This document shows, piece by piece, positions 34,080 through 53,315 of a DNA stretch of 64,000 nt. Position numbers and translations under genes: made by a program. The stretch comes from Gammaproteobacteria bacterium. Lineage in GTDB: Bacteria > Pseudomonadota > Gammaproteobacteria > JABDGN01. The DNA lies in NCBI GenBank assembly GCA_013285995.1, contig JABDGN010000003.1:5317-69316 (forward strand). The letters run 5' to 3'. Numbering within the stretch: the stretch's first letter is position 1; every line of letters starts with the position of its first letter. The notes under the pieces were generated by a model. That model saw only the letters and a program-made list of their open reading frames with translations, ran no database searches and was not told the origin of the DNA.

Positions 34080-34181
34080 GTAGGTCGGCTTCCCGCGTTT
34101 CATTTTAATGAAACGCGCAAGCCGACAGCCAATGTCGGCTTACTCACCTCGCGTTACGCGAGGTTCGGGAAGCCGACCTAC
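34080..34181. repeat. family B compound palindromic element (gtaggtcggcttcc...ggaagccgacctac), BIME-like
   Basis: About 100 bp with outer and two inner hairpins. Five copies in the window. Confidence 0.8.
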
Positions 34182-34201
34182 ATTTGATCTGAGGAAATAC
34201 A

Positions 34202-35518
34202 ATGAGTGAAACAACAACACCCACTGGCGAGAACAAGCCCACTTTGTTTTGTTCTTTCTGTGGTAAAAGCCAACATGATGTGCGCAAGTTAATTGCGGGC
34301 AACAGTGTGTTTATTTGCGATGATTGCGTGGATTTATGTAACGACATCATTCGTGAAGAATTAGCCGAAGCCGAAGCACAAGAGCAGCAAGCGGATTTGC
34401 CCACACCGGAAAAGATTTATAAAACCTTAGACGAGTATGTTATCGATCAACATTACGCCAAACGTGTATTGTCGGTTGCGGTTTATAACCATTACAAACG
34501 TTTAAATAGCGCCAAGCTAGAAGACGAAGTTGAAATTCGTAAAAGTAATATTTTATTAATTGGCCCGACCGGTAGTGGTAAAACTTTATTAGCTGAAACC
34601 TTAGCGCGCAGTTTGAATGTGCCATTCACGATTGCCGATGCAACCACTTTAACCGAAGCCGGTTATGTCGGTGAAGACGTTGAAAATATTATTCAAAAAT
34701 TATTACAGAACTGTGAGTACGATGTATCCAAAGCCGAAATGGGCATTGTATACATCGATGAAATCGATAAAATTTCTCGTAAATCGGAAAATCCTTCTAT
34801 TACGCGCGATGTATCGGGTGAAGGCGTGCAACAAGCTTTATTGAAATTAATTGAAGGCACCGTGGCTTCCGTTCCGCCCCAAGGTGGACGCAAACATCCG
34901 CAGCAAGAATTTTTACAAGTCAACACCACCAATATTTTATTTATTTGTGGTGGTGCATTTAGTGGCTTGGATAAAGTTATCCGCGCTCGCACGGAAAAAT
35001 CGGGGATTGGGTTTAATGCCGAAGTGGTTTCGAAAGATGATCAAAAAGTCATTGGTGAAATTCTTAAAACGGCTGAGCCCGAAGATCTCATTAAATTTGG
35101 CTTGATTCCTGAATTTGTCGGACGCTTACCGGTGATTGCGACCTTAGAAGAATTAGATCAGAAGGCTTTAGTGCGCGTGTTGGCAGAGCCAAAAAATGCG
35201 CTTATCAAGCAATATACTAAGTTATTTAAAATGGAAGGCGTGGAATTGGAGTTTCGTCCGGAAGCTTTAAACGCGATTGCAACCAAAGCCGTGGAACGCA
35301 AAACCGGTGCGCGCGGTTTGCGCAGTATTTTAGAAAAAACTTTATTGGATGTGATGTTTGAAATTCCTTCTAACAAGAGCATTAGCAAAGTGATTGTTGA
35401 TGAGGCTTGTGTGAAGGGAGAAAGTAAACCGGTGTTGGTGTACAGTCAAACTGAACGCAAAGCCGCGCCGATTGTTGCAGAGCCAAAAGCAGAGCCGAAA
35501 ATAGCCAAGCAGGCTTAG
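34202..35518 (+). CDS. clpX: ATP-dependent Clp protease ATP-binding subunit ClpX
   Basis: Zinc finger [16 protein letters not shown] and Walker A GPTGSGKT. Confidence 0.96.
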
Positions 35519-35531
35519 GTTTTTTTTTCTT

Positions 35532-35614
35532 CGTCATTCCCGCGAAAGCGGGAATCCAGGTTTTTTGGGGATTAGCCCACGTTTTTCTGGATTCCCGCCT
35601 ACGTGGGAATGACG
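35532..35614. repeat. family C MITE-like element (cgtcattcccgcgaaagcgggaatccag...cgtgggaatgacg)
   Basis: Terminal inverted repeats with internal hairpins. Confidence 0.8.
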
Positions 35615-35648
35615 CATTTACAATACAGCTAAAACGAGTGAAGCCCCT

Positions 35649-38093
35649 ATGCCCGATTCACAAGACAACATAATTTCCCAAACCCTCTGCGTCGTGCCCC
35701 TGCGTGATTTAATTATCATGCCGCATCGGATGCGACCCCTCTCTTTATTCGTCGGACGACGTAAGTCAGTCGTCGCGCTAGAGCGCGCCATGACCAGCAG
35801 TCAAAAAATTGTTTGCGTCGCACAAAAACAATTTAATGATGAAAATCCCAGCTTTGAAAATTTGTACCAGATAGGCACTGTTTGCCGCGTTTTACTGCGT
35901 TATCCGCTCGCGGATGGTACGGTCAAAATTGTTTTGGAAGGTGAAAGCCGTTGTGAAATTAAAGAATTTCATGACGATGGTGTAGCATTAACCGCCGATG
36001 TTAATATCATCACCGAAGCACAAGTCAGCGTCAAAGAACATGAAACAGTGTGTCGCGTTTTGCTAAGCGCCTTTGAAAATTATGTGCGCCTCAATCAAAA
36101 AATCCCCCCTGAATTTTTATTAGAGCTAGCTGGTCTTGATGACGCGGGTCGTTTGGCAGATACCATCGCCGCCTACATCAATATGAAATTGCCGGATCGA
36201 CAAGCCTTATTAAGCACAATTAATGTGGCTGAGCGCTTGGAAAAATTATTAGCGCTGCTCGAAGGGGAGCTAAATTTATTAGAAGTCGACAATCGTTTGC
36301 GCGAGCAAGTTAAAAAACAAATTGATAAAACCCAGCATGAATTTTATTTAAATGAACAGTTGAAGGCGATTCAAAAGGAATTGCACGGTGGCACTGAAAA
36401 CGAACTAACTGATTTACAAAAATTAGAGCAGCGTATTAAAGAAGCTGGCATGAGTGCTGAAGCGCAAGAAAAATCGCTCACGGAATTGAAAAAGTTAAAA
36501 GCGATGCCGGCTAATTCTTCCGAAGCCAGTGTGGCGCGCAATTATTTAGATTGGATGTTGCGTCTGCCCTGGCAAAAACGCAGCACCATTAAGCGCGATT
36601 TGAAAGCGGCAGAAAAAATTTTACATGCCGATCACTATGGGCTGGAAAAAGTTAAAGAGCGAATTTTAGAATATTTAGCAGTGACACAACGCGTAAAAGC
36701 ATTGAAAGGGCCCGTGTTGTGTTTAGTCGGTCCACCGGGCGTTGGTAAAACGTCCTTAGGTGAATCGATTGCCCGCGCAACTGGGCGTGAATTTGTGCGT
36801 TTGTCTTTGGGCGGCGTGCGCGATGAAGCAGAAATTCGCGGTCATCGCCGCACGTATATTGGTTCGATGCCAGGGCGCATTTTGCAAAAAATGGCTAAAA
36901 CAAAAGTCGTTAATCCCTTATTTTTGCTGGACGAAGTCGATAAAATGACGCGCGATTACCACGGTGATCCTAGTGCAGCGTTATTAGAAGTATTAGATCC
37001 GGAACAAAATAATAGTTTTAACGATCATTATTTAGATGTCGATTATGATTTGTCGCAAGTCATGTTTATTGCGACCGCCAATTCTTTAGATATTCCGCCG
37101 CCCTTATTAGATCGCATGGAAGTGATTCGCTTGAGTGGTTACACCGAAGATGAAAAAGTTCATATCGCTGAGCAGCATTTGATTCCGAAGCAAATTAAGG
37201 AAAATGGCTTAAAAGAAAAAGAATTAAAAATTTCGATTAGCGCTTTGCGTGACATGATTCGTTATTACACGCAAGAAGCGGGGGTACGCAATTTAGAGCG
37301 GGAAATCGCTAAAATCTGTCGAAAAATTGTCAAGGCAGCGCAACTTGAGAAGAAGTCTACGCAGCAGCGTGCGTGTTTGATTACGCCAAAAAATTTAGAA
37401 AAATATTTAGGCGTGCATCGTTATCGGCATGGTTTAGCTGAAAATCAAAATCGGGTCGGGCAGGTGACAGGTTTAGCCTGGACCGAAGCGGGCGGAGATC
37501 TATTAACGATTGAAGTGGCCACTGTACCCGGCAAAAGTAATGTGAAGCGTACCGGCAGTTTAGAAAATGTGATGTTGGAATCGATCGATGCGGCCGTGAC
37601 GGTGGTGCGCTCACGTGCTGCGCAATTAGGCTTGGAAGACTTTTATCCCAACACGGATATTCATTTTCATGTGCCAGCCGGGGCGATTAAAAAAGATGGT
37701 CCCAGTGCCGGGATTGCGATGTGCACAGCATTGGCTTCCAGCTTAACGCAAATTCCCGTGCGTGCCGATGTCGCGATGACGGGCGAAATTACTTTGCGCG
37801 GTGAATTATTGCCAATTGGTGGTTTGAAAGAAAAATTATTAGCCGCGCTGCGAGGTGGCATCAAATTAGTGATCATCCCTGCCGAAAATAAACGCGAATT
37901 ATCGGAAATTCCTGAACAAATTAAACAAGCGCTAGATATTCGTTTAGTGCGCTGGATCGATGAAGTATTTGCCTTAGCATTAGAAAGCCCACCCAAAGCA
38001 AAAGTTGTATTAGCTGATGCAATCGTTGAAGCTTTGCCCGCCGCGGCGATGGCACAAACTTCAAAACGCAATGAGAAGCGTAAAGTGCATTGA
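35649..38093 (+). CDS. lon: Lon protease
   Basis: 814 aa. LON N domain, Walker A GPPGVGKTS and proteolytic site DGPSAG. Confidence 0.96.
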   Translation: MPDSQDNIISQTLCVVPLRDLIIMPHRMRPLSLFVGRRKSVVALERAMTSSQKIVCVAQKQFNDENPSFENLYQIGTVCRVLLRYPLADGTVKIVLEGESRCEIKEFHDDGVALTADVNIITEAQVSVKEHETVCRVLLSAFENYVRLNQKIPPEFLLELAGLDDAGRLADTIAAYINMKLPDRQALLSTINVAERLEKLLALLEGELNLLEVDNRLREQVKKQIDKTQHEFYLNEQLKAIQKELHGGTENELTDLQKLEQRIKEAGMSAEAQEKSLTELKKLKAMPANSSEASVARNYLDWMLRLPWQKRSTIKRDLKAAEKILHADHYGLEKVKERILEYLAVTQRVKALKGPVLCLVGPPGVGKTSLGESIARATGREFVRLSLGGVRDEAEIRGHRRTYIGSMPGRILQKMAKTKVVNPLFLLDEVDKMTRDYHGDPSAALLEVLDPEQNNSFNDHYLDVDYDLSQVMFIATANSLDIPPPLLDRMEVIRLSGYTEDEKVHIAEQHLIPKQIKENGLKEKELKISISALRDMIRYYTQEAGVRNLEREIAKICRKIVKAAQLEKKSTQQRACLITPKNLEKYLGVHRYRHGLAENQNRVGQVTGLAWTEAGGDLLTIEVATVPGKSNVKRTGSLENVMLESIDAAVTVVRSRAAQLGLEDFYPNTDIHFHVPAGAIKKDGPSAGIAMCTALASSLTQIPVRADVAMTGEITLRGELLPIGGLKEKLLAALRGGIKLVIIPAENKRELSEIPEQIKQALDIRLVRWIDEVFALALESPPKAKVVLADAIVEALPAAAMAQTSKRNEKRKVH

Positions 38094-38095
38094 TT

Positions 38096-38205
38096 GTAGG
38101 TCGGCTTACGAGAGTTTCGCGATTAGCGAAACGAACAAGCCGACGCCAAAAAACGATGTCGGCTTGTTCGCTTGGTTTACGCCAAGCTCTCGTAAGCCGA
38201 CCTAC
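38096..38205. repeat. family B compound palindromic element
   Basis: Begins 3 nt after the lon stop codon. gtaggtcggcttacgag...ctcgtaagccgacctac. Confidence 0.8.
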
Positions 38206-38303
38206 GTTATGAGAAAATTTTTTAGAAATAACTTGACCTAAGGGCGCCATACTGGTATAAATCTCGTCCCTAAAAATTTGCCCCGTTAGTGAGGATGCAG
38301 GCA

Positions 38304-38576
38304 GTGAATAAAGCAGAATTAATTGACAATATTGCTGCAAAAGCGGATTTATCAAAAGCCGATGCAGGTCGCGCCTTAGATGCCGTTTTGGAAAGCATTA
38401 CCGAATCTTTAAAAAGCGGTACCGACGTTGCCTTAGTAGGGTTTGGCACTTTTCATGTAAAAAAACGTGCCGCGCGCAAAGGACGCAATCCGAAAACGGG
38501 CGCAGAGATCGAAATCAAAGCCGCCAATGTACCGGATTTTAAAGCCGGGAAGGCGTTGAAAGACGCAGTTAATTGA
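38304..38576 (+). CDS. hupB: DNA-binding protein HU-beta
   Basis: GTG start giving (M)[35 protein letters not shown]...GFGTF..RNPKTG. Confidence 0.88.
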
Positions 38577-38712
38577 GTTGTGAGTTGTGGGTTGTCAGTT
38601 GTGAGAGAATTTAGTTGTGAGTTGTGAGTTGTGAGAAAAAGCAAAATCTTTTTTCTTATAAATGTTTCTTGCGATACACAGTCATGAGATCTCACAACTC
38701 ATGCCTCACAAC
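38577..38712. repeat. short tandem GTTGTGAG/CTCACAAC repeat array forming an inverted-repeat structure
   Basis: gagttgtgagttgtgggttgtcagttgtgag...agttgtgagttgtgagttgtgag and the reverse tctcacaactcatgcctcacaact. Lies between hupB and tRNA-Val. Confidence 0.7.
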
Positions 38713-38721
38713 TAATATTGC

Positions 38722-38797
38722 GGGTGCTTAGCTCAGTTGGTAGAGCATCGCCCTTACAAGGCGAGGGTCGGGGGTTCGAACCCCTCAGCACCCACCA
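38722..38797 (+). tRNA. tRNA-Val (anticodon TAC), CCA encoded
   Basis: gggtgcttagctcagttggtagagc...cTTACAa...ggttcgaac...agcacccacca. Confidence 0.9.
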
Positions 38798-38799
38798 TT

Positions 38800-38880
38800 T
38801 ATTAAGTTGTGGGTTGTGGGTTGTCAGTTGTGAGTAAATTATCTCACAACTCATGCCTCACAACTCACAGCTAATATCCA
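38800..38880. repeat. short tandem GTTGTGGG/GTTGTGAG repeat with inverted copy
   Basis: ttaagttgtgggttgtgggttgtcagttgtgagtaaattatctcacaactcatgcctcacaactcacag. Second copy of the structure that flanks tRNA-Val. Confidence 0.7.
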
Positions 38881-38882
38881 GC

Positions 38883-38959
38883 GGAGTGGTAGTTCAGCTG
38901 GTTAGAATACCGGCCTGTCACGCCGGGGGTCGCGGGTTCGAACCCCGTCCACTCCGCCA
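38883..38959 (+). tRNA. tRNA-Asp (anticodon GTC), CCA encoded
   Basis: ggagtggtagttcagctggttagaataccggcctGTCacgccgggggtcgcgggttcgaaccccgtccactccgcca. Confidence 0.9.
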
Positions 38960-38989
38960 TATTCTTAAGGATTGGGGATTAATAAAACC

Positions 38990-39052
38990 GTAGGGGCGGG
39001 GCTTGACCCGCCCATTGCGGGACGGTCAAGCCCGTCCCCTACAGGTTTTTAT
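38990..39052. repeat. family A compound palindromic element (gtaggggcggggcttgacccgcccattgcgggacggtcaagcccgtcccctac)
   Basis: Variant spacer, same GTAGGGGC/GCCCCTAC termini. Confidence 0.75.
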
Positions 39053-39082
39053 AATCCTCAATCCTTCTTTCTGAGGGACTCT

Positions 39083-40996
39083 ATGTTACAACGCATGCGC
39101 GATGGTATTCAAGGTTGGATTGCGTGGATCATCATCATCGCTATCATCGCTTCCCTTTGCCTCTTAGGCGTCAATTATTATCTGCATGGCCAGAGTGGCA
39201 ACAGTAATGCGGTGGCTCAGGTTGACGACACCGTCATTACACAACAGCAATTAACTAATGCCTATAATCGGGCCCGCAGTCAACAAGTCGATTTACCCGC
39301 TAATTCTGCTGCTGAACAACAATTGCGGCACGATGTATTACAAAAATTAGTCGACCAAGCCTTAACGCAAAATATTGCGCAAGCCAATGGGTTTAGTATT
39401 TCGCGCGAGCAAGTCGATAATTTAATTGCACAAATTCCTGCGTTTCAAACTAATGGCCAATTCTCATCTGACCGTTTCGCGGCGATTTTAAGCCAACTTA
39501 ACTATACGCCACCGCAATTTATGGATGAAATGCGTTCCGGCATGTTGATTAACCAATTAGAAGGGGGCTTGGCAATCTCAAGCTTTGCCTTGCCTAGTGA
39601 AATTGCTGGCACGATTCAAATGGTTAAGCAAACCCGCGATTTTAGTTACACCCAAATTCCGGTGACTCAGTATTTAAAGAAAGTGACGGTAACTACGGAT
39701 CAAGCGCAACAATATTATGTTGCTCATCAAAATGATTTCCTCACCCCCGAAAAAGTGCAGGTTAATTATTTAATGTTGACGGGTGCTAATGTGGCTGCGG
39801 GTATCAAACCCAGCGCAGCTGACTTGCAACAGTTTTATCAAACCAATATCAGTAATTATTCGCAACCCGCGCAATGGAAAATTGCTCATATCGTGATTCG
39901 TGTAGATGGCAATGATCCAAAAGCGATTGCTAAAGAATTAGAGACAATTGAAACCGCCATCAAAGCAGGAGCTGATTTTGGCTCACTTGCGAAAAAATAT
40001 TCTGATGATCCTTTGTCAGCGCGACAAGGCGGTGTATTGCCGTGGGTATCAGCCGGTACCTTGCCGCAAGCTGTACAAGCTGCCGTGATGAATTTGAAAG
40101 TCGGGGAAGTTTCCGCGCCCGTAAAAAATGCGACGGAAGATAGTTACGAAATTATTAAATTATTAGATCTTAAAAAACCGACCGTGACACCGTTTGCGCA
40201 AGTGAAAACGGCGGTTCAACAAGCCTATATACAACAACAAACGCAACAGCAATTAGCCAATGCCGCGCAACAATTACAAGATTTAACCTTCCAAAATCCA
40301 GATTCTTTGCAAGCAGCGGCGCAAGCTTTAAATTTAAAAGTACAAACTTCCGATTGGTTATTGCGCAATACGCCGCCCACGCAAGGTGTATTTAGCAACA
40401 CTAATTTATTTCAAGCGGCTTTCAGTGATCAACTGCGCAGTGGTACGAATAGTGATGTATTGTATCCGGATCAAACCACGGCCATCGTACTGCGGGTGAA
40501 AGATTATCAAGCGGCGCAACCGATTCCATTCGCGCAGGTACAGGCGAAGATTACCCAGTTATTGACGGAGCAAGCCAGTGCCCAACAAGCGCAAGCGTTT
40601 GCCGATCGCTTAGTGAAAGCATTGCAAGATGGTCAAACGTTAGCGCAATTAACGGCGGCTTATGGTGTGAAGTGGAGTGGGGTGAGTAAAGCCGATCGAC
40701 ACAGTCAGAAGGTGAATTCATTGATTTTACAAACGGCGTTCAATGTGCCGCGTCCTGCCAAAGGTGCGATTTCTGCCACCAACGTGACTTTACCAACGCA
40801 ACAAATCGCGGTGATTGCTGTGACGGCGGTTTATGATAACAGCTCAAAAATAGCGCCCTTACCAGCAGAGCAAAAGATTTATCAAACGCAACTGCAAAAT
40901 TATTACAGCCAATTCGCGCAAACCGAATTGCTTAATTACTATCGTCGCCAGGCAGATGTGAAAATTTATCAGCAGCAGATGCAGGCGGATAGTTAG
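39083..40996 (+). CDS. ppiD: periplasmic chaperone / peptidyl-prolyl isomerase PpiD
   Basis: N-terminal TM segment MLQRMRDGIQGWIAWIIIIAIIASL, SurA-like and parvulin-like regions. Conserved position after hupB. Confidence 0.85.
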   Translation: MLQRMRDGIQGWIAWIIIIAIIASLCLLGVNYYLHGQSGNSNAVAQVDDTVITQQQLTNAYNRARSQQVDLPANSAAEQQLRHDVLQKLVDQALTQNIAQANGFSISREQVDNLIAQIPAFQTNGQFSSDRFAAILSQLNYTPPQFMDEMRSGMLINQLEGGLAISSFALPSEIAGTIQMVKQTRDFSYTQIPVTQYLKKVTVTTDQAQQYYVAHQNDFLTPEKVQVNYLMLTGANVAAGIKPSAADLQQFYQTNISNYSQPAQWKIAHIVIRVDGNDPKAIAKELETIETAIKAGADFGSLAKKYSDDPLSARQGGVLPWVSAGTLPQAVQAAVMNLKVGEVSAPVKNATEDSYEIIKLLDLKKPTVTPFAQVKTAVQQAYIQQQTQQQLANAAQQLQDLTFQNPDSLQAAAQALNLKVQTSDWLLRNTPPTQGVFSNTNLFQAAFSDQLRSGTNSDVLYPDQTTAIVLRVKDYQAAQPIPFAQVQAKITQLLTEQASAQQAQAFADRLVKALQDGQTLAQLTAAYGVKWSGVSKADRHSQKVNSLILQTAFNVPRPAKGAISATNVTLPTQQIAVIAVTAVYDNSSKIAPLPAEQKIYQTQLQNYYSQFAQTELLNYYRRQADVKIYQQQMQADS

Positions 40997-41001
40997 GATT
41001 C

Positions 41002-41105
41002 GTAGGTCGGCTTCCCGAGCTTCGCATCAAGCGAAGTGAGTAAGCCGACATTTGTTGTCGGCTTGTTCGTTTTGCCTATCGGCAAAACTCCGGAAGCCGA
41101 CCTAC
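41002..41105. repeat. family B compound palindromic element
   Basis: gtaggtcggcttcccgagcttcgc...ggcaaaactccggaagccgacctac, 6 nt after the ppiD stop. Confidence 0.8.
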
Positions 41106-41113
41106 GCCTAAAA

Positions 41114-42424
41114 TCATCCTCTCACTTGCAGCTTTTCCCCCACCTGCAACGGCTTCCGCGGATTTAATTGATTCAAACTTACTAACTGTTTCACACTCAT
41201 CTTATGCCGTTCGGCAATGCCCGACAGCGTATCACCCGCTTTCACCCGATAAACTACTGTCCCTCCCAAACCAGGTTCGCGCTCATGCATCAAGAAATTA
41301 CGCGAGGTAGCGTGAGCACTGACCGGTGGGGGAGACGTGGGCACTAACAACACTTGGCCGGTATGCAATTTATCGGTGACCAATTGATTACTAGCGCGAA
41401 TTAAATCAATTGTAGTGTGGTAACGTTGGGCCACTTTTTCGATGGTGTCATGGCGTTTTACTGTGTAATTTTGCCATTTAATATTATTTAATTCAGCGAT
41501 GCCATCGGTGAATTGTTGCTCTTGAGCGGCGGGTACCACGATGTGATAGGTATGATTCGGTGCGCTGGCAGAGCGATTAAAGCCAGGATTTAATTGATAA
41601 AACTCCTGCATACTGATGCCAGCTAATTGGGCGGCTTCAGTCAAATCAATTTGCGAATGCACGGTTACAAAGGCTAAATAAGGTTTATCCGGCGTAGCAG
41701 GCCAATCAATCGGGTACTTTTTCTGATCTTGCAAAATAATCGCCAAAGCTAGTAATTTAGGCACATATTGCCGGGTTTGTTCGGGCAAACGCAAATCCCA
41801 AAAGTCGGTCGGCAAGCCGCGTGCTGAATTGCGAGCAATCGCATTTTGCACGGTCCCTTCACCGGCGTTATAAGCGGCAATCGCTAAATACCAATCGCCA
41901 TTAAAATATTGTTTTAAGTAAGCTAAGTAATCCAGCGCTGCTTGCGTGGAAGCAAAAATATCACGTCTTCCGTCGTACCACCAATCACGTTTTACTTTGT
42001 AATAACTGGCTGTACCGGGTAAAAATTGCCATAAACCGGAAGCACCTGAAGGCGAGTGCGCATAAGGATTGTAAGCACTTTCGACAATCGGCAATAAGGC
42101 TAATTCGCCGGGCATATTACGCGTTTTAACTTGCTGTTGGATATAATAAATATAGGGGCTGCCACGGGTGGCGGAATGGACCAGGAAATCCTGATGCGAC
42201 ATATACCAATCAATTTGCGCTTGAACTTCGGAACGATTAGCATATTCATTCAGTGAAAAATTTTTATCTAAAACGCGCCATATATTCGTTTCAGTTTCAC
42301 CCGTTGTAGGATTTACAAACTCGGGCGAAGGTTGGCTAGCATGCCCAAACGGCATAAAAGAAGTGCTGCTGCTGCAAGCAGAAAGACTTAAAGCGATAAT
42401 GACGGCTAAGGCTAATTTTTTCAC
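41114..42424 (-). CDS. mltD: membrane-bound lytic murein transglycosylase D-like lipoprotein with LysM domains
   Basis: Lipobox LSAC. SLT domain ES..NP.A.S..GA.GLWQF. C-terminal LysM repeats (YTVKRHDTIEKVA, YRVKAGDTLSGIA). Confidence 0.85.
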   Translation of the reverse strand: MKKLALAVIIALSLSACSSSTSFMPFGHASQPSPEFVNPTTGETETNIWRVLDKNFSLNEYANRSEVQAQIDWYMSHQDFLVHSATRGSPYIYYIQQQVKTRNMPGELALLPIVESAYNPYAHSPSGASGLWQFLPGTASYYKVKRDWWYDGRRDIFASTQAALDYLAYLKQYFNGDWYLAIAAYNAGEGTVQNAIARNSARGLPTDFWDLRLPEQTRQYVPKLLALAIILQDQKKYPIDWPATPDKPYLAFVTVHSQIDLTEAAQLAGISMQEFYQLNPGFNRSASAPNHTYHIVVPAAQEQQFTDGIAELNNIKWQNYTVKRHDTIEKVAQRYHTTIDLIRASNQLVTDKLHTGQVLLVPTSPPPVSAHATSRNFLMHEREPGLGGTVVYRVKAGDTLSGIAERHKMSVKQLVSLNQLNPRKPLQVGEKLQVRG

Positions 42425-43194: not shown

Positions 43195-43663
43195 AATTTT
43201 TACTGATGGTGCCTGCCAAGGTAATCCTGGGCCCGGCGGCTGGGGCGCGATTTTACGTTATGGTGAAACGGAAAAAGAATTATCCGGTGCTGTTTCTGAC
43301 ACTACCAATAATCGCATGGAGTTAACGGCTGCGATTGAAGCACTCAAGGCTTTAAAAAAACCGTGCGAAGTGAGCTTAAGCACTGATTCGAAATACGTAC
43401 AAGAGGGTATCCAAAAGTATATTCACAACTGGAAAAAAAATGGTTGGAAAACAGCTAATAAAAATGCCGTTAAAAATGCCGATTTATGGCAACAGCTTGA
43501 TGCAGTCGCTAGTCAACATGCAGTACAGTGGCATTGGGTGAAAGGGCATAATGGGCATCTGGAAAATGAACGGGCGGATCAATTGGCGGTGCAGGCAGTA
43601 AAAAATATGCTAAATAAAAATCCCCCCTGCCCCCCTTTTCCAAAGGGGGGATCTCTTATTTGA
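43181..43663 (+). CDS. rnhA: ribonuclease HI
   Basis: [25 protein letters not shown]...[14 protein letters not shown]...[16 protein letters not shown]. The last 14 codons ([14 protein letters not shown]) and the stop lie inside the family D repeat. Confidence 0.85.
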
Positions 43664-43850
43664 TTTCCCCCTTTTCCAAAGGGGGGATCTCTTATTTGAT
43701 TTCCCCCTTTTCCAGAGGGGGGATCTCTTATTTGATTTCCCCCTTTTCCAAAGGGGGGATCTCTTATTTGATTTCCCCCTTTTCCAAAGGGGGGATCTCT
43801 TATTTGATTTCCCCCTTTGAAAAAGGGGGATTAAGGGGGATTTAAGAAAT
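43633..43850. repeat. family D tandem array: about 5.5 copies of a 36-bp unit (cccccttttccaaaggggggatctcttatttgattt)
   Basis: Direct perfect repeats, each with a C5-TTTTCCAAA-G6 hairpin. Fills the whole rnhA-dnaQ spacer. The ORF track's 61-aa reading ([12 protein letters not shown] x5) is a translation artifact. Confidence 0.9.
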
Positions 43851-44562: not shown

Positions 44563-44665
44563 GTAGGTCGGCTTCCCGAGTTTCGCTTTAGCGAAGCGAG
44601 TAAGCCGACATTATGTGTCGGCTTGTTCATCTCGCCTTACGGCGAAACTCCGGAAGCCGACCTAC
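44563..44665. repeat. family B compound palindromic element
   Basis: gtaggtcggcttcccgagtttcgctttagcgaagcgagtaagccgac...ggcgaaactccggaagccgacctac. Confidence 0.8.
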
Positions 44666-45111
44666 GCTGCATCTCCAATTGCCTCCAACACTTCCTCCAC
44701 ATGTCCTGTGACCTTGACATTGCGCCATTCTTTGATGAGCTTACCCCCTTTAAATAAAAACGTACTGCGATCGACGCCTAAATATTCTTTGCCATAAAGC
44801 TTTTTCATTTTCATCACCTCAAAATGCTGACAAAGTTTTTCTTCCGGGTCGCTGATCAGCGCAAAGGGAAACTCAAACTGACATTTAAATTTATCGTGTG
44901 ATTTGAGACTGTCACGCGATACGCCATAGACGCTCGCACCTAATTTGCTAAATTTTTTAAAATGCTTGGCAAAATCCTGGCCTTCTAAGGTACAGCCTGG
45001 CGTATTATCTTTGGGGTAAAAATATACGACCAAATAAGGGGTTTCAACTTCGCTGAGTTTGACTTCGCCTTGTGTAGTAGATAAAGTAAAGTCAGGTAAT
45101 TTTTTGTTCAT
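44662..45111 (-). CDS. bcp: thiol peroxidase Bcp (peroxiredoxin)
   Basis: VVYFYPKDNTPGCTLEGQDF peroxidatic Cys motif. 149 aa. Confidence 0.88.
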   Translation of the reverse strand: MNKKLPDFTLSTTQGEVKLSEVETPYLVVYFYPKDNTPGCTLEGQDFAKHFKKFSKLGASVYGVSRDSLKSHDKFKCQFEFPFALISDPEEKLCQHFEVMKMKKLYGKEYLGVDRSTFLFKGGKLIKEWRNVKVTGHVEEVLEAIGDAA

Positions 45112-45142: not shown

Positions 45143-45249
45143 TCGTCATTCCCGCCCCCGTCTTCACGAGGGTAAACTCCAGCGGGAATCCAGAAATAAA
45201 GTAAACAATTTGAATTAAAGGCTGGATCCCCGCTTTCGCGGGGATGACG
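45143..45249. repeat. family C MITE-like element (variant with ttcacgagggtaaactcc core)
   Basis: cgtcattcccgcccccgtcttcacgagggtaaactccagcgggaatccag...ggatccccgctttcgcggggatgacgg. Confidence 0.75.
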
Positions 45250-46203: not shown

Positions 46204-46336
46204 CGTCATCCCGGAAATTGCCCCCGTTTTCACGAGGGTAAACTCCGCAATTATCCGGGATCCAGGTATTATCCCCGCGAAAGCGGGGACCCAGCATTAA
46301 AAAATGCCTGGATTCCCGCCTTCGCGGGAATGACGT
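46204..46336. repeat. family C MITE-like compound element
   Basis: cgtcatcccggaaattgcccccgttttcacgagggtaaactccgcaattatccgggatccag...ctggattcccgccttcgcgggaatgacg. Contains two nested inverted-repeat modules. Confidence 0.75.
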
Positions 46337-46404
46337 GAAATGTTGGTTTGTTCATTTCACCGTTGGCAAAATTTAGCAAGCCAACTTTACTTGGATTTTT
46401 TAAT

Positions 46405-46983
46405 ATGAAGTTAATTAGAATTTTTTTATTTGGATTGATCGTCTTAAATCTTACCGCTTGCTGGCCCATCGCTGGCCAACACGGTTTGATTCATAATCGG
46501 GAAAACGATTATTTAAAGAGTCAGCAGCAAACCACGCTCGCAATCCCAGCTGGCTTGAGCAATAGCAATATTCAAGATCAAGCGCCGATTCCGCAAGGTC
46601 CCGCTTGGAGTTCAACGACACCCGCTAGCATTCTGCCGCCCGGTAGTATTTTAGCGCAGGGTAAAGCTATTGCGCCGGCTTTGCAAGGTAATGGACCTTG
46701 GTTAGGAGTAGGTTCTAATGGTGAACCGGCTTTATTAGTGAATGGAAAAATTGCTACTGTATGGCCGCAAGTCGCAACCGCTTTACAAGCATTGCAATAC
46801 CAAATTGCAGGCAGCGATCAACGCGTTGGTTTATATATGGTAAGCCGCAATAAACAAGCTTTTGTGTTTAATGTGTTGCAAGCTCAACAAGGTGTAGTGA
46901 TTACAGTGGAATCCTATGAAAGCATCCCATTGCAAAATAAAGACGCGAAAAAATTATTACAAGAATTAAGCAAGAAATTATGA
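46405..46983 (+). CDS. lipoprotein, BamC(NlpB)-like by position
   Basis: Lipobox VLNLTAC after a signal peptide. Located between dapA and purC as bamC is in E. coli, but only about 190 aa. Confidence 0.5.
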   Translation: MKLIRIFLFGLIVLNLTACWPIAGQHGLIHNRENDYLKSQQQTTLAIPAGLSNSNIQDQAPIPQGPAWSSTTPASILPPGSILAQGKAIAPALQGNGPWLGVGSNGEPALLVNGKIATVWPQVATALQALQYQIAGSDQRVGLYMVSRNKQAFVFNVLQAQQGVVITVESYESIPLQNKDAKKLLQELSKKL

Positions 46984-47690
46984 AAAAAACTATCTTAGCT
47001 ACCGGCAAATCTAAAACGATTTACACAACCGATGATCCTAACTTATTGGTGATGGAGTTTCGTGATGACGCGACGGCCTTTAATGGAGTAAAAAAAGCGT
47101 CGTTGGCGCGCAAGGGCAAAGTGAACAATCATTTTAACGCGCATGTGATGCAATTATTGGCGGCTGAAAATATTGCCGTGCATTTTGTAAAATTATTATC
47201 GGAAACAGAATCGCTGGTTAAAAAGCTCGACATGATCCGTATCGAGTTTGTGGTGCGTAATGTAGTGGCTGGTGGCATCAGTAAACGTTTAGGAATCGAA
47301 GAAGGCATGGTATTGCCTGAGCCCACTTTAGAATTATTTTTAAAAGACGATGCTTTGGGCGATCCGATGATCAATGAATCGCATGTGCACGTATTTAACT
47401 GGGCGAAAGATGAAGAAATCGCTGAGTTGAAACAAAGAACTTTACGCATCAATACCATTCTCAAAGCCTTCTTTGCCAAAGCCGGTTTAACCCTGGTGGA
47501 TTTTAAATTGGAATTTGGCCGCGCTGATGGCAAACTATTATTAGGCGATGAATTTACCTTAGATGGCTGTCGCGTGTGGGATACTAAAACGCAAAAGAAA
47601 TTTGACAAAGATCGCTTCCGCCGTGATTTAGGTGAGGTGATTGAATCGTATGAAGAAGCGGCGGAACGGTTGGGGATTGATGTTTTGTAG
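46980..47690 (+). CDS. purC: phosphoribosylaminoimidazole-succinocarboxamide synthase
   Basis: SAICAR synthetase family. 236 aa. Its stop TAG forms the head of the following family A element. Confidence 0.93.
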   Translation: MKKTILATGKSKTIYTTDDPNLLVMEFRDDATAFNGVKKASLARKGKVNNHFNAHVMQLLAAENIAVHFVKLLSETESLVKKLDMIRIEFVVRNVVAGGISKRLGIEEGMVLPEPTLELFLKDDALGDPMINESHVHVFNWAKDEEIAELKQRTLRINTILKAFFAKAGLTLVDFKLEFGRADGKLLLGDEFTLDGCRVWDTKTQKKFDKDRFRRDLGEVIESYEEAAERLGIDVL

Positions 47691-47736
47691 GGGCGCCTCG
47701 CGAGGCGCCCGTGGGCCGGTCGCGACCGGCCCCTAC
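47687..47736. repeat. family A compound palindromic element (gtaggggcgcctcgcgaggcgcccgtgggccggtcgcgaccggcccctac)
   Basis: Overlaps the purC stop codon. 10 nt upstream of tRNA-Ser. Confidence 0.8.
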
Positions 47737-47746
47737 ATTTAGCGTA

Positions 47747-47837
47747 GGAGAGGTACCGAAGTGGTCATAACGGCACCGACTCGAAATCGGTCGGGGGAGC
47801 AATCCCCACAAGGGTTCGAATCCCTTCCTCTCCGCCA
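47747..47837 (+). tRNA. tRNA-Ser (anticodon CGA), CCA encoded
   Basis: ggagaggtaccgaagtggtc...accga-ctCGAaa-tcggt, long variable arm, ggttcgaatccc T-arm and cctctccgcca. Confidence 0.88.
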
Positions 47838-47845
47838 TATTTTTT

Positions 47846-47878
47846 AAAAAGGGCAACGCAGTTGCCCTTTTTAAAAAA
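47846..47878. terminator. rho-independent terminator hairpin (aaaaagggcaacgcagttgccctttttaaaaaa)
   Basis: Perfect 9-bp GC-containing stem with T-run. Directly after tRNA-Ser. Confidence 0.75.
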
Positions 47879-47954
47879 TACAGCGAGAGGGTAGGATGAG
47901 AACACTCTGGTTCGACAAATTCGCCGGGAGCGAATTTGGTCGCGCTTTGGCTTC

Positions 47955-48074
47955 GTAGGTCGGCTTACGAGAGTTTCGCATTAAGCGAAACGAACAAGCC
48001 GACAGCATGGCAAATTTCAAATATTGTCGGCTTGTTCATCACGCCTGCGGCGTAACTCTCGTAAACCGACCTAC
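47955..48074. repeat. family B compound palindromic element
   Basis: gtaggtcggcttacgagagtttcgcattaagcgaaacgaacaagccgac...gtaactctcgtaaaccgacctac. Confidence 0.8.
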
Positions 48075-48088
48075 AATTATATACAACC

Positions 48089-48973
48089 TTGAATACGACA
48101 TCCCCCCACTTCCATCTCGAACACAACGTTTCTCTCGCTGACTACGTCTCGTGGAAAACCAGCGGCTCCGCTAAACAACTTTTCCAACCCAGCAGTTTGG
48201 AAAACCTTCAAGCTTTTCTCAAAACCTTAGCCAATGACGAACCCTTATTATGGATTGGCCTCGGCAGCAATTTACTCATTCGTGACGGTGGCTTTAATGG
48301 CACAGTGATTTTTACGCAAAAACATTTACGGCATATAGAGCTAAAAAATACGACGACTATTTATGCCGAGTGTGGCGTTGCCTGCCCGAGTTTGGCGCGG
48401 TTTGCGGCCAAACATCATTTAAGTGATGCGGAGTTTTTTGCGGGTATTCCGGGTACCATCGGGGGAGCATTAGCGATGAATGCCGGAGCTTTTGGTGGCG
48501 AAACCTGGGAAAAAGTTTTGCGCGTTGAGTGCATCGATCGACAAGGAATTATCCACCAACGCTCGGCAACAGAGTTTGCGATTTCCTATCGTACAGTTGA
48601 AACGTCGCGCGAAGAATGGTTTGTGGGTGCAAGCTTTGAATTTGCCAGCGGTGATAAAACTAATGCTTTAGAAAAAATTAAACACTTGCTCGATAAACGT
48701 GCTGCCACCCAACCGACCGGTGTGCCCACTTGTGGATCGGTGTTTCGCAACCCGCCAGGTGATTATGCCGCGCGTTTAATTGAAGCCTGTGGTTTGAAAG
48801 GTCATCAAATTGGCGGTGCGGTGGTTTCCGAGAAACACGCCAATTTTATCGTTAACACGGGCACTGCCACGGCCAGCGATATTGAGCAATTAGTTGATTA
48901 TGTCGCCGCTACCGTGCTCGAGCAACAAGGTGTACAATTGCATCGGGAAGTGAAGGTCATGGGTGAGAGATGA
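48089..48973 (+). CDS. murB: UDP-N-acetylenolpyruvoylglucosamine reductase
   Basis: FAD-binding MurB family (GLGSNLL...GIPGTIGGA...). 294 aa. Confidence 0.9.
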   Translation: MNTTSPHFHLEHNVSLADYVSWKTSGSAKQLFQPSSLENLQAFLKTLANDEPLLWIGLGSNLLIRDGGFNGTVIFTQKHLRHIELKNTTTIYAECGVACPSLARFAAKHHLSDAEFFAGIPGTIGGALAMNAGAFGGETWEKVLRVECIDRQGIIHQRSATEFAISYRTVETSREEWFVGASFEFASGDKTNALEKIKHLLDKRAATQPTGVPTCGSVFRNPPGDYAARLIEACGLKGHQIGGAVVSEKHANFIVNTGTATASDIEQLVDYVAATVLEQQGVQLHREVKVMGER

Positions 48974-49734
48974 TATTTTGGCGCGCTAAGCCAGCGGGGC
49001 AAGCTAAATTACGAACCGAAAGTGGCGTGCAATATTTTTTACGACGCTTAAAAAAAATTTGTTTATGGCTGCTTGCTTTACTGATTTTAATTTTTATCAT
49101 CAGTAGTTATATTTATTTACATCGCCCCAGCACTTTACCAATTAAAACGATTCAAGTGCTCGGGGAATACAGTCACATTGATAATCGGACGGTGGAAAAT
49201 ATTGTTTTACCTGATGTGCAAAATGGCTTGCTCAACTTAAATTTAAGCACCTTGCAGCAGGCTCTCTTGCAATTGCCTTGGCTAGAGCGAGTCGAGATTC
49301 GCAAAATTTGGCCCGACACGATTGTTATTTATTTATATCAACAGGTGCCGGTAGCCTATTGGAATGAGAAAAGTTTATTGAACGATACGGGCGTCATTTT
49401 CACGCCACCGCACTTGAAAGATTTACCAGCCGATTTACCGTATTTTAATGGACCTGATTCGCAAAGCGCAGCGATGCTGGCCGCTTATCGCGATATGACT
49501 CAACGTTTGCAGCCTTTGGGTTTGTCAGTGCTTGCGATCAATTTAAGTCAGCGTCATGCGTGGACAGTTACTTTAAGTAACGGTATTATTTTAATTTTAG
49601 GTCGGGAAGATTTTGCGGATCGTTTGCAACGGTTTATTACGGTGTATCCGAATGTTTTAAGTGCCAAAGCGGGTCGGGTGCAGAGTGTCGACCTGCGATA
49701 TAATAGTGGATTGGCTGTTGAGTGGAAACGGTGA
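48970..49734 (+). CDS. ftsQ: cell division protein FtsQ
   Basis: Single TM ICLWLLALLILIFIISSYIYL, then a POTRA-like region (IQVLGEY...LPWLERVEIRKIWPDTIVIYLYQQVPVAYWN). Confidence 0.8.
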   Translation: MIFWRAKPAGQAKLRTESGVQYFLRRLKKICLWLLALLILIFIISSYIYLHRPSTLPIKTIQVLGEYSHIDNRTVENIVLPDVQNGLLNLNLSTLQQALLQLPWLERVEIRKIWPDTIVIYLYQQVPVAYWNEKSLLNDTGVIFTPPHLKDLPADLPYFNGPDSQSAAMLAAYRDMTQRLQPLGLSVLAINLSQRHAWTVTLSNGIILILGREDFADRLQRFITVYPNVLSAKAGRVQSVDLRYNSGLAVEWKR

Positions 49735-49744
49735 AAAATCCCCC

Positions 49745-49878
49745 TTAATCCCCCTTTTTCAAAGGGGGAAATCCTTCATTCAATTTATTGCATGAATCCC
49801 CCCTTTTTCAAAGGGGGAAATCCTTCATTCAATTTATTGCATGAATCCCTCCTTTGAAAAAGGGGGGCAGGGGGGATT
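49745..49878. repeat. family D tandem hairpin repeat (about 46-bp unit x 2.5, ending ggggggcaggggggattt)
   Basis: tcccccttaatccccctttttcaaagggggaaatccttcattcaatttattgcatgaa repeated. Directly after the ftsQ stop. Confidence 0.85.
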
Positions 49879-49921
49879 TAAAATTTTCAAATTTTGAAAA
49901 ATAAAATTTAAAGGTATCAAA

Positions 49922-51001
49922 TTGCGAGTCATAAATTTCGGGGCCGGTCCCGCTATGTTACCGGACAGTGTATTAGAACGAGCGCAAGTAGAAATGTTGG
50001 ACTGGCGTGGTACGGGTATGTCGATCATGGAAATTGGGCATCGCAGTTCTGCGTTTGAAGCATTATTACTGGGCATTGAAGCTAAACTGCGGCAGCTCAT
50101 GTCGATCCCTTCGAATTATAAAATATTATTTTTAGCCGGTGGCGCACAAGCGCAATTTGCTGCGATACCGATGAATTTATTGCGTGGCAATACCACGGCT
50201 GATTATGTTTATACCGGTGTATGGTCGGGTCTGGCGATAGATGAAGCGAAGAAACATTGTCAAGTCAATATAGTGGCGAGTGGGGAAGCGGAAAATTTTT
50301 TAACGATTCCCGCGCGCACCGACTGGCGATTAAATCCACACGCAGCTTATGCGTATTATTGCCCCAATGAAACCCTGACTGGCCTGCAATTGCACAGCAT
50401 ACCTGAGGTTGGTAATGTGCCACTGGTAGCAGACTTTACTTCCTCTATTTTGTCAGAGCCATTGGAGGTTGCAAAATTCGGTTTGATTTTTGCCAGCGCG
50501 CAAAAAAATTTAGGCCAATCGGGTGTGACCACCGTCATCGTGCGCGAAGATTTATTAGGTAACCCCGCAGCGATAACGCCTAATGTGTGGAATTATACGA
50601 AACAAGCCGAAGCGCAATCACGGGTCAATACACCGCCGACCTATGCCATTTACATTTTGGGTTTAATGTTAGATTGGGTAGCAGAGCAGGGTGGTGTCAC
50701 CGCTCTCGCCGCGACCAATGCGCGCAAAGCACGGACTTTGTATGGGTATATTGATCAGAGTGATTTTTATCGCAATCAAGTCGCACCCTCCTATCGCTCT
50801 GCAATGAATGTCACTTTTAATTTACCAACGGAAGAACTCAATGCTGCATTTGTAGCCGCCGCTGCAAAAGAAAATTTGATGAATTTAAAAGGGCACAAAA
50901 AAGCGGGTGGCATTCGGGTGAGTTTATACAATGCAGTGAGCGCAGCGATGGTGCAACGCTTAGTTGAGTTTATGCGCGAGTTTGCCAAAAGTGCGGGATA
51001 A
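49922..51001 (+). CDS. serC: phosphoserine aminotransferase
   Basis: MRVINFGAGPAMLPDSVLERAQ... aminotransferase class V. 359 aa. Confidence 0.93.
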   Translation: MRVINFGAGPAMLPDSVLERAQVEMLDWRGTGMSIMEIGHRSSAFEALLLGIEAKLRQLMSIPSNYKILFLAGGAQAQFAAIPMNLLRGNTTADYVYTGVWSGLAIDEAKKHCQVNIVASGEAENFLTIPARTDWRLNPHAAYAYYCPNETLTGLQLHSIPEVGNVPLVADFTSSILSEPLEVAKFGLIFASAQKNLGQSGVTTVIVREDLLGNPAAITPNVWNYTKQAEAQSRVNTPPTYAIYILGLMLDWVAEQGGVTALAATNARKARTLYGYIDQSDFYRNQVAPSYRSAMNVTFNLPTEELNAAFVAAAAKENLMNLKGHKKAGGIRVSLYNAVSAAMVQRLVEFMREFAKSAG

Positions 51002-51013
51002 ACGCATTAGCTT

Positions 51014-51043
51014 GGATTCCCATCGCTACGCGATGAGAATGAC
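51014..51043. repeat. family C half-element (ggattcccatcgctacgcgatgagaatgac)
   Basis: Degenerate single hairpin module related to gtcattcccgcg... Confidence 0.5.
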
Positions 51044-51122
51044 ATCAAAATTAACAAATCAAAGACAGCCCTGCAAATAGCTGTTAAAATAGCCGCTTAC
51101 TTAAAATTTTTTAGGAATTATT

Positions 51123-52361
51123 ATGGCTTGGACAGAACCCGGCAAAGACAAACAACCTAATCAGCCTAATGGATCCAATGATCCTAATCAAGGCCCACCT
51201 GATTTGGACAAGGTGTTTAAAGAATTTTCGCAAAAATTTGCTAGTTTGTTTGGCAAGAAGAAAACCACTTCCAGCACTGATAAAACGCCGCCCAGTGGCC
51301 ATAGCACAGTGATGGGCGTTGGTATCGTCATTGCGATTTTAATCGTGATTTGGATTTTATCGGGCATTTTCATTGTTTCGCCGCCGGAGCAAGCCGTCGT
51401 GTTGCGGTTTGGGCAATATGAAACAACGGTCGGCCCGGGCCCGCACTGGATCCCACGTTTTATCGATTCAGAAACCATCTTAAATGTACAACAAGTTTCT
51501 ACTTATTCTTATGAAGCGCAGATGCTGACCAAAGATCAAAACATCGTCGACGTATCGGTGGCGGTGCAATATAAAATTGCTGATGCCAAAGCTTATTTGT
51601 TTAATGTGGCCGATCCGGAACAAAGTTTACAACAAGCGACGGCCAGCGCGTTGCGGCAAGTGATTGGTAACACTAACCTGGATGATATTTTAACCAGTGG
51701 TCGTGCAGTGGTGCGGGATGAAGTGGGCCAACAACTCAATCAAATTTTGCCAATTTATAATACTGGTATTGTAGTGACTGACGTTGCTTTGCAACCAGCT
51801 AAAGCCCCCGATCAAGTGAAAGATGCCTTTGACGATGCGATTAAAGCGCAGGAAGATGAACAACGTTATATTAATCAAGCGCAAGCTTACGCACAAAGCG
51901 TCGTGCCGGTCGCACAAGGGAATGCACAGCGGATTTTGCAGGAAGCGCAAGCCTATCGTCAGCAAATAGTGTTAGCTGCGAAAGCAGATGTGGCACGTTA
52001 CCTGGCGATTTTACCAGTGTATCAAAGCGCGCCGGGTGTGACGCGCGAACGGATGTACTTATCAATGGTGCAAGATGTGTTTCAACATACTAACAAAGTA
52101 TTGTTGGATGCGAAGGGCAATCAAAATGTGGTGTATTTGCCCCTGGATAAATTAGGGGCAGCCGCTGCACCGGTTGCCACATCGACTAATGCAACGCCTA
52201 TTACCAATGCTGCTTCCGATGCGAGTCAGCAGTCGAGTACGGCACCTTCTTATAGCAGTAACACCAATAGCTCAAGCAGCAATGCTGCCGGAGCAGGTCG
52301 CCCGCAACGATTTGTATTCACCAATCCCGATAGCCAAGTGGGTACAGGAGGGAATCAATAA
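51123..52361 (+). CDS. hflK: FtsH protease modulator HflK
   Basis: MAWTEPGKDKQPNQPNG... SPFH/band-7 domain with a Q/S-rich C-terminus. Confidence 0.9.
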   Translation: MAWTEPGKDKQPNQPNGSNDPNQGPPDLDKVFKEFSQKFASLFGKKKTTSSTDKTPPSGHSTVMGVGIVIAILIVIWILSGIFIVSPPEQAVVLRFGQYETTVGPGPHWIPRFIDSETILNVQQVSTYSYEAQMLTKDQNIVDVSVAVQYKIADAKAYLFNVADPEQSLQQATASALRQVIGNTNLDDILTSGRAVVRDEVGQQLNQILPIYNTGIVVTDVALQPAKAPDQVKDAFDDAIKAQEDEQRYINQAQAYAQSVVPVAQGNAQRILQEAQAYRQQIVLAAKADVARYLAILPVYQSAPGVTRERMYLSMVQDVFQHTNKVLLDAKGNQNVVYLPLDKLGAAAAPVATSTNATPITNAASDASQQSSTAPSYSSNTNSSSSNAAGAGRPQRFVFTNPDSQVGTGGNQ

Positions 52362-53257
52362 TGTCGAAGAAATTAGTTGGCATCATTATTCTCATCATCA
52401 TTATTTTAATGGTGTTGTCAGGCAGTTTGTTTACGGTGGATGAAGGTGAACAAGCCTTAGTCACCCGTTTAGGGCAAATTAAAGATAATTCGCAAGGTCA
52501 GCCGCAAGTGATGTTGCCGGGCTTGCATGTGAAAACGCCGTTTTTGGATTCGGTATTGTATTTTGATACGCGGATTCAAACTTTAACCATCGATAAATCA
52601 CGCGTGGTGACGGCACAGAAAAAAGATGTGTTAGTCGATTATTATGTGAAATGGCGCATTACCAATTTAGCCAGTTATTTCACTTCGACAAGTGGTGATT
52701 CAGCGCAAGCCGAGCAATTATTGACGCAACAAATTAATGGTGCATTGCGCGCGCAATTTGGTCAGCGGGATATTCCGGATGTCGTGTCAGATGCGCGGTC
52801 GGAAATTATGTCGGCACTCTCAAAAAGTGCAAACGTGGGTGCGGCATCGCTGGGGATTCAAGTGATCGATGTACGGATTAAAGCGATTGATTTACCCGAT
52901 GAAGTGAGTAGCGCTGTGTTTAACCGGATGCGTGCTGAACGTACCCGTGTTGCCGCGCAACACCGCTCTGAGGGCCAAGCGCAGGCCGAAGCCATTCAAG
53001 CGACAGCCGATGCGGATGCCACTGTGATTGTTGCTAAAGCCAATGAACAAGCGGCACAATTGATGGCCGAAGGCGATAAAGAAGCGGGTAAAATCTATAC
53101 GCAAGCGTATAGTAAAGACCCCAATTTCTACGCATTTTATAAGAGTTTGCAAGCCTATCGGCAGTCGTTTTCAAATTCGAACAACAATATTTTAGTGTTG
53201 AGCCCGAATAGTGATTTCTTTAAATATTTTAATAATCCTAGTGGTAATAATAAGTAG
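52361..53257 (+). CDS. hflC: FtsH protease modulator HflC
   Basis: SPFH domain, immediately after hflK with an overlapping stop/start. Confidence 0.9.
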   Translation: MSKKLVGIIILIIIILMVLSGSLFTVDEGEQALVTRLGQIKDNSQGQPQVMLPGLHVKTPFLDSVLYFDTRIQTLTIDKSRVVTAQKKDVLVDYYVKWRITNLASYFTSTSGDSAQAEQLLTQQINGALRAQFGQRDIPDVVSDARSEIMSALSKSANVGAASLGIQVIDVRIKAIDLPDEVSSAVFNRMRAERTRVAAQHRSEGQAQAEAIQATADADATVIVAKANEQAAQLMAEGDKEAGKIYTQAYSKDPNFYAFYKSLQAYRQSFSNSNNNILVLSPNSDFFKYFNNPSGNNK

Positions 53258-53265
53258 GTCGGTTT

Positions 53266-53315
53266 GTAGGGGCCGCTCGCGAGCGGCCCGCGGGCGGGTC
53301 ACGACCCGCCCCTAC
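53266..53315. repeat. family A compound palindromic element (gtaggggccgctcgcgagcggcccgcgggcgggtcacgacccgcccctac)
   Basis: Preceded by a gtaggtcgg fragment (family B head) that contains the hflC stop codon. Confidence 0.8.

Follow-up and report, generated by a model that had tools for sequence, protein, structure and literature searches.

The stretch analysed here (the window) is 64 kb of contig JABDGN010000003.1 from an uncultured member of the Gammaproteobacteria, and it carries, between its housekeeping genes, two families of short repeats, A and B, which are very probably repetitive extragenic palindromic (REP) elements headed by GTAG. The genes neighbouring these repeats were tig, clpP, clpX, lon, hupB, tRNA-Val, tRNA-Asp, ppiD, mltD, dnaQ, bcp/prxQ and purC, and further tRNA-Ser, murB, hflK, hflC, purA, prmB, ddl, udk and smrA. 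Identities of the flanking genes were checked with NCBIfam and Pfam, which bore out the names given to them in an earlier note on this DNA, and the remaining open reading frames (ORFs) were annotated with Pfam. An Rfam scan of the window at gathering thresholds returned four tRNAs only.

Copies of families A and B and their positions

The window held 11 loci and two relics of families A and B (~22 units) over 53 kb, every one intergenic. They are listed below; pairs are given without a strand.

524..547, plus strand: family A REP singlet, GTAG followed by GGGCGGCTCGTAAGCCGCCC
15125..15148, plus strand: family A REP singlet, 17 nt past the prmB stop and 23 nt ahead of the ddl start
17003..17052: inverted pair of A units, heads outward and 2 nt apart, in the gap that separates the minus-strand genes udk and smrA; the smrA stop is 33 nt away
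34080..34181: B pair (47-nt REP, 7-nt spacer, inverted 48-nt REP) in the clpP-clpX gap, 11 nt past the clpP stop and 20 nt ahead of the clpX start
38096..38205: B pair of 49 + 13 + 48 nt, lying 2 nt past the lon stop and ahead of the hupB promoter region
38990..39042: variant pair of A units, 5 nt apart, in the gap from tRNA-Asp to ppiD
41002..41105: B pair of 48 + 7 + 49 nt, flanked by the convergent genes ppiD (stop at 5 nt) and mltD (stop at 8 nt)
44563..44665: B pair of 47 + 7 + 49 nt, flanked by the convergent genes dnaQ (stop at 20 nt) and bcp/prxQ
46342..46390, minus strand: single B unit in decay (TAAAGTTGGCTT...GAACAAACCAAC), lying between dapA and bamC and matched by covariance model R1
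47687..47736: family A heads-outward pair, whose left GTAG contains the purC TAG (47688-47690); tRNA-Ser begins 10 nt downstream
47955..48074: family B pair (49 + 22 + 49 nt), between tRNA-Ser and murB, right unit slightly degenerate (GTAGGTCGGTTT)
53254..53265, plus strand: family B head remnant of 12 nt, GTAGGTCGGTTT, abutting the A pair at 53266 and holding the hflC stop
53266..53315: pair of A units, heads outward, in the hflC-purA gap

All 11 copies listed in the earlier note were confirmed at its coordinates by motif scans. The 24-nt family A motif, with up to 3 mismatches, matched at 524, 15125, 17003, 47687 and 53266 and at the inverted partners, and was absent from shuffled sequence (0 matches in 100 shuffles); the variant at 38990-39042 was recovered, along with the other elements, when GTAGG...CCTAC pairs were sought. 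With no more than 2 mismatches allowed, the terminus of family B, GTAGGTCGGCTTCC, matched at exactly 10 places, namely the two inverted ends of each of the five copies (mean expected from shuffles 0.16). A covariance model (R1) built from the ten family B units found its own units again at 59-76 bits, as it must by construction, and added a further unit, decayed and on the minus strand, at 46342-46390 (25.7 bits, E 3.9e-5). This decayed copy and the shortened copy at 53254-53265 showed turnover of the elements.

Among the 10 copies with interpretable gaps, eight lay between genes of the same direction, two between convergent genes and none between divergent genes (gene table; small sample). 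Distances from stop codon to element were 2 nt for lon, 5 for ppiD, 8 for mltD (minus strand), 11 for clpP, 17 for prmB, 20 for dnaQ and 33 for smrA; the closeness to the stops of lon, ppiD, clpP and dnaQ on which the earlier note had remarked was thus borne out by measurement. Seven of 10 flanking protein stop codons were within 11 nt of an element, including three that were overlapped by it (purC, bcp and hflC). The element was closer to the upstream stop than to the downstream start in 7 of the 8 same-direction gaps (one-sided binomial ~0.035), a result that is weak because n = 8.

The gene purC ended at the TAG formed by bases 2-4 of the A head at 47687, as the earlier note had it. For hflC the same note had named the head of the A copy at 53266; the stop was indeed the TAG of a REP head (53255-53257), but the head was the 12-nt family B remnant at 53254-53265. 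The stop of bcp/prxQ (44662-45111, minus strand) was the reverse complement of 44662-44664, in the right-hand head of the B copy at 44563-44665, and was absent from the earlier note.

Anatomy of the units

GTAG stood directly 5' of a stem in all 20 units (10 of A and 10 of B). The family A unit consisted of GTAG and a 20-nt GC palindrome of the form GGGC-NNN-TCG/CGA-NNN-GCCC, and occurred as two singlets (524 and 15125) and four heads-outward pairs with spacers of 2-5 nt. The earlier description of A as a GC palindrome with a GTAG head stood, and its size of 25-63 bp did not, singlets measuring 24 nt and pairs 50-53 nt. The 10 units had 10 different bodies, each paired at 7-10 of 10 positions, and the middle triplet was swapped with compensation on the other side (GGC/GCC, CGG/CCG, GCC/GGC, CGC/GCG and GGG/CCC). 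Fold energies were ~-16 kcal/mol per singlet and -35 to -41 kcal/mol per pair (z against shuffles -2.7 to -6.3).

The A pair at 38990-39042 lay exactly within the loop of a larger palindrome at 38967-39066 with 23-nt arms (AAGGATTGGGGATTAATAAAACC / GGTTTTTATAATCCTCAATCCTT), which had no second copy within the window.

Family B, described earlier as one element of ~100-120 bp with two inner hairpins, proved to be an inverted pair of REPs: a left unit and, across a spacer of 7-22 nt, a right unit in inverted orientation, with heads outward and units of 47-49 nt. Each unit comprised GTAG, an 8-bp foot (GTCGGCTT/AAGCCGAC), an internal loop, an upper stem of 6-10 bp and a loop of 3-6 nt (-20 to -27 kcal/mol). 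The whole pair folded as a single strand into a four-way junction (-65 to -75 kcal/mol; z against dinucleotide shuffles -10.9 to -14.2), in which an outer stem of 14-19 bp closed off three inner hairpins.

In the model-fitted alignment of B units, 99.3% of 150 pair cells were standard pairs. The foot was invariant except for one C-to-T change, and all upper-stem pairs (7/7) were changed on both sides; 0 of 500 shuffles did as well, and slid controls were paired at 23-43%. These covariation figures lean towards structure because the alignment was fitted to that structure; independent folds of single B units gave the same stems. Between copies, pairwise identity was 62-87% overall, with head and foot invariant, and the five spacers (7, 7, 7, 13 and 22 nt) were unrelated in sequence. 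No direct target-site duplication was found flanking any of the 11 A and B copies.

Related systems and competing explanations

Families A and B were best explained as two families of GTAG-tagged REPs, probably spread by a REP-associated tyrosine transposase (RAYT), and this explanation was held with high confidence. The earlier note had placed the elements in the same class, as REP elements or bacterial interspersed mosaic elements (BIMEs) with a GTAG head of the kind handled by RAYTs, and that assignment stood on GTAG and a hairpin in every unit, compensatory stems, the lack of target duplications, the sites beside gene 3' ends and the RAYT genes that REPs of this head and foot bracket elsewhere. 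In E. coli, the RAYT protein TnpA-REP binds the 5' GTAG base-specifically; neither its binding nor its cleavage at CT dinucleotides takes place without GTAG and a mismatched hairpin (PMC3479197).

The GTAG super-family of REPs, as defined by Di Nocera, De Gregorio and Rocco (2013), has stems of 6-13 bp, sub-families that differ by complementary changes, G-T pairs and, in REPs of the E. coli type, complex bulged "loops" (PMC3733652). Its members are mostly heads-outward (HH) dimers 1-5 bp or 20-100 bp apart, heterodimers included; several families occur per genome, also in Coxiella burnetii, and dimers may be nested in other palindromes. Most are found no further than 20 bp from a 3' end, in gaps whose flanking ORFs share a direction or converge, and their contact with stop codons, including the supply of TAG, is already published (PMC3733652). 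Families A and B resembled this super-family (including the E. coli-type GTAG-3 and the SMAG repeats of Stenotrophomonas) in the 5' GTAG with its stem, the compensatory sub-families, the heads-outward dimers, the heterodimers with different upper stems, the several families per genome, the 3'-end sites, the TAG stops supplied and the dimers nested in palindromes. They differed from it in their host, a poorly sampled gammaproteobacterium, and, for family B, in the great length of the unit (47-49 nt, of which the foot takes 8 bp and the upper stem 6-10 bp). The 24 published GTAG families were compared by description, and the stem sequences of A and B were matched to no one family among them. Every feature that the earlier note called striking is already in the published description of GTAG REPs (PMC3733652); both the kind of REP and its habit of lying at stop codons have been described, and nothing here goes conceptually beyond published GTAG REPs.

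REPINs are defined as paired REPs, one inverted relative to the other across a spacer (PMC3116915, PMC3337134), a definition that the A and B pairs fit. Like the REPINs of P. fluorescens SBW25 (Bertels and Rainey 2011, PMC3116915), they were inverted REP pairs with a short spacer that can fold as one long hairpin; the SBW25 elements are presumed to be non-autonomous passengers of a single-copy RAYT (PMC3116915). The five B pairs of this one 64-kb window, a sample too small to judge population structure by, had unconserved spacers of 7-22 nt and identities of 62-87% and gave no sign of being a young population grouped about a master sequence. With the BIMEs of E. coli and its rayT (yafM) "REPtron" they shared GTAGG-initiated bulged hairpins (GTAGGCCGGATAAGG... 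in E. coli, GTAGGTCGGCTT... here), alternating orientation, an intergenic or 3' location and, elsewhere, RAYT loci bracketed by the same type of REP, but only single pairs were seen here, without conserved linker motifs or long alternating clusters. The Correia (Neisseria) and ERIC (enterobacteria) miniature inverted-repeat transposable elements (MITEs) are likewise palindromic intergenic repeats of ~100-150 bp co-transcribed with their neighbours; they differ from A and B in the target duplications (TA in Correia) that accompany their terminal inverted repeats and in the lack of any unit of GTAG plus hairpin.

The earlier note had found no RAYT in the window, and Pfam scans of the ORFs likewise gave no Y1_Tnp match there. 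The rayT gene of E. coli K-12 (L085, 3638-4135) had no Pfam Y1_Tnp match at E ≤ 1e-3 either, so that a screen by Pfam only can miss RAYT genes, and the absence in the window was therefore rechecked by tblastn, where three RAYT queries gave a best E-value of 0.25, and by motif scans (0 HUH-motif matches; two stray loose matches to the tyrosine motif, neither in a RAYT context).

Outside the window, a scan of 185,579 species-representative genomes with the whole B element returned only seven loci, in Janthinobacterium, a metagenome-assembled genome (MAG) of Wenzhouxiangellaceae and an Alcanivorax MAG, with the same 12-nt head and 8-nt foot and with shorter upper stems, and none in the organism of the window. 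A metagenome scan for the B half-element gave at least 72 scattered single matches, with no contig of that organism among the matches listed. The head and foot common to the window and to RAYT-flanking REPs elsewhere were GTAGGTCGG(C/T)TT...AA(G/A)CCGAC. At the Wenzhouxiangellaceae locus (L003), an ORF of 164 aa with HUH (LPDHIHCLL) and tyrosine (YIHYNPVKHG) motifs (Y1_Tnp E 2.5e-6) was bracketed by inverted REPs with the B-type 12-nt head and 8-nt foot. A second MAG (L088) carried a RAYT 65% identical to it, bracketed alike by REPs with the B-type head and foot, and a metagenome contig (L061) held a frameshifted RAYT amid GTAGGTCGGCTT...AAGCCGAC units. Used as query, the L003 RAYT had 2189 relatives, none attributable to the organism of the window; two of them that were looked up (P0137 and P0097) were both from other organisms. 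The PpiD protein of the window had one exact match and a next relative at 57% identity, the named matches being Legionella (~31-32%). In the 57% relative, neither the tRNA-Asp-to-ppiD gap nor the gap after ppiD held an A or B element.

On the preferred explanation, a RAYT of the HUH/Y1 type encoded elsewhere in the genome would most likely have spread A and B as single-stranded DNA hairpins, reading GTAG and the bulged hairpin and leaving no target duplications. Copies would persist where insertion is tolerated, just beyond the 3' ends of genes, and the TAG of an inserted head could take over as the stop codon of the gene. Four points weigh against it. The copy census and the RAYT search spanned the 64-kb window; the statistic of proximity to stop codons was based on ~10 sites; there were no near-identical "master" copies among the five B copies, and their spacers of 7-22 nt were not conserved, so that recent transposition of the B pair as one unit was not evident; and a functional effect of the hairpins would be carried over from other systems.

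The REP/BIME elements of E. coli bind gyrase, an IHF/HU-like protein and DNA polymerase I. Retention of A and B mainly as sites for such chromosome-organising proteins, with homogenisation by gene conversion, was considered improbable. Recognition by a protein would be expected to hold head and foot fixed and to let the upper stems co-vary freely, as they do here, but the invariant part is exactly what a RAYT reads, GTAG and the bulged foot (PMC3479197). This possibility is also compatible with the preferred explanation, and it leaves the arrival of copies at new sites unexplained.

The reading of family B as a MITE derived from a DDE-type insertion sequence and moved via its terminal inverted repeats of 14-19 bp, with A an unrelated GC hairpin, was very unlikely. 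The terminal inverted repeats of B are indeed long and almost perfect, and its length of 102-120 bp resembles that of a MITE, but each half of B is a self-contained unit of GTAG plus hairpin, B-type units were found elsewhere as singlets and beside RAYT genes, and the window itself held a decayed singlet (46342-46390). The MITE was rejected on the lack of a direct duplication beside any copy.

That A and B are hairpins evolved locally for regulation, as terminators or attenuators of protease and chaperone operons, and are not mobile, was given hardly any credence. Their sites at gene 3' ends and their very stable folds would suit such a role. Against it, the same head and foot stood at unlinked and functionally unrelated genes (prmB, smrA, purC, murB and dnaQ), and the sites flanking ppiD lacked A and B in the 57% relative. 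In the terminator scan and in the flanks, moreover, no T-run followed any hairpin or outer stem of family A or B on either strand, and the only match within A and B was a single weak one, on the minus strand, on the central hairpin of the copy at 34080; several repeats of families labelled C and D were also flagged. The hairpins of A and B are not canonical intrinsic terminators, because they lack T-tracts. The proposal in the earlier note that the elements double as transcription terminators was accordingly not upheld, and the intrinsic terminator was rejected as a candidate. CRISPR (clustered regularly interspaced short palindromic repeats) and attC sites were dismissed for want of an array and of core sites, respectively.

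Work in E. coli and Salmonella has shown that REP hairpins shield upstream mRNA from 3' exonucleases and attenuate read-through. Hairpins within ~15 nt of a stop codon reportedly may hinder translation termination (Liang, Rudd and Deutscher are said to have described this in 2015). By analogy, A and B may protect and stabilise mRNA 3' ends: their transcribed hairpins would hold up 3' exonucleases and serve as partial attenuators in operons such as clpP-clpX-lon, and those no more than ~15 nt from a stop could hinder termination of translation. RNase R and PNPase are both active on mRNAs that carry REPs (PMC12320835). A stronger proposal was regarded as quite unlikely: that REP heads in this lineage, with an unusually dense repeat load, are systematically recruited, in genes for proteostasis and housekeeping (clpP, lon, ppiD, hflC, purC and bcp), as the stop codon or as the structure right behind it, giving genome-wide control of translation termination and of ribosome rescue linked to transfer-messenger RNA, instead of being passive passengers.

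Other repeats in the window and meaning for the organism

Five repeat families, A, B and three others, made up 29% of the intergenic DNA of the window. From clpP to the first GDSL gene (33445-54757), 16 of 17 gaps longer than 50 nt held one of the five; in the lower-GC left third of the window, repeat occupancy was much lower.

The third family had a CGTC head (CGTCATTCCCGCGAAAGCGGGAATCCAG) and occurred as singlets and heads-outward pairs, and the fourth was a palindrome, TCCCCCTTTTTCAAAGGGGGA. Their positions were:

23385-23412, 35532-35614, 45222-45249, 46205-46335, 54642-54661 and 62592-62739: third family (CGTC head)
573-593, 16264-16338, 43630-43830 and 49736-49879: fourth family (palindrome)

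The third family matched the CGTC-tagged REP super-family (Neisseria dRS3-like, ATTCCC-N8-GGGAAT) of PMC3733652. Its copy after clpX was followed by a T-run, and a compensated variant, GTCATGCCAGCGAAGGCTGGCATCCAG, stood after ppiD in the 57% relative (L010, about 2393-2419). The fourth family included a 5.5-copy tandem array of a 36-bp unit in the rnhA-dnaQ gap and a 2.4-copy array of 49 bp after ftsQ, and several of its copies looked terminator-like. Palindromes rich in TGTGAG/TGTGGG heptamers flanked tRNA-Val and tRNA-Asp at 38574-38715 and 38805-38872, with arms AGTTGTGAGTTGTGAG... / ...CTCACAACTCATGCCTCACAACT.

A long imperfect inverted repeat at 31957-32122 (arms of 25-42 nt, 76-92% complementary) lay between tRNA-Leu and tig and overlapped the start of the longest tig ORF; the true start of tig is probably further downstream, because the profile match starts at residue 38. 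On the minus strand, 5826-14060 was a giant ORF of 2744 aa at ~49-55% GC, against 36-45% around it, with internal tandem repeats of periods 72 and 102 nt. Three successive GDSL-lipase paralogues (1035, 470 and 438 aa) occupied 54757-60607 in the same orientation. The mechanical ORFs of ppiD (38972) and bamC (46348) began in or upstream of repeats, the likely starts being ATG 39083 and ATG 46406; REPs can thus inflate called ORFs here.

The results add two REP families, and three or more other palindromic families, to what is known of a hardly sampled lineage of Gammaproteobacteria. The repeats break short-read assemblies of this organism, whose Logan contigs stop inside them, and can mislead gene callers, as at ppiD and bamC. 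They also provide the real stop codons of three genes, purC, bcp and hflC.

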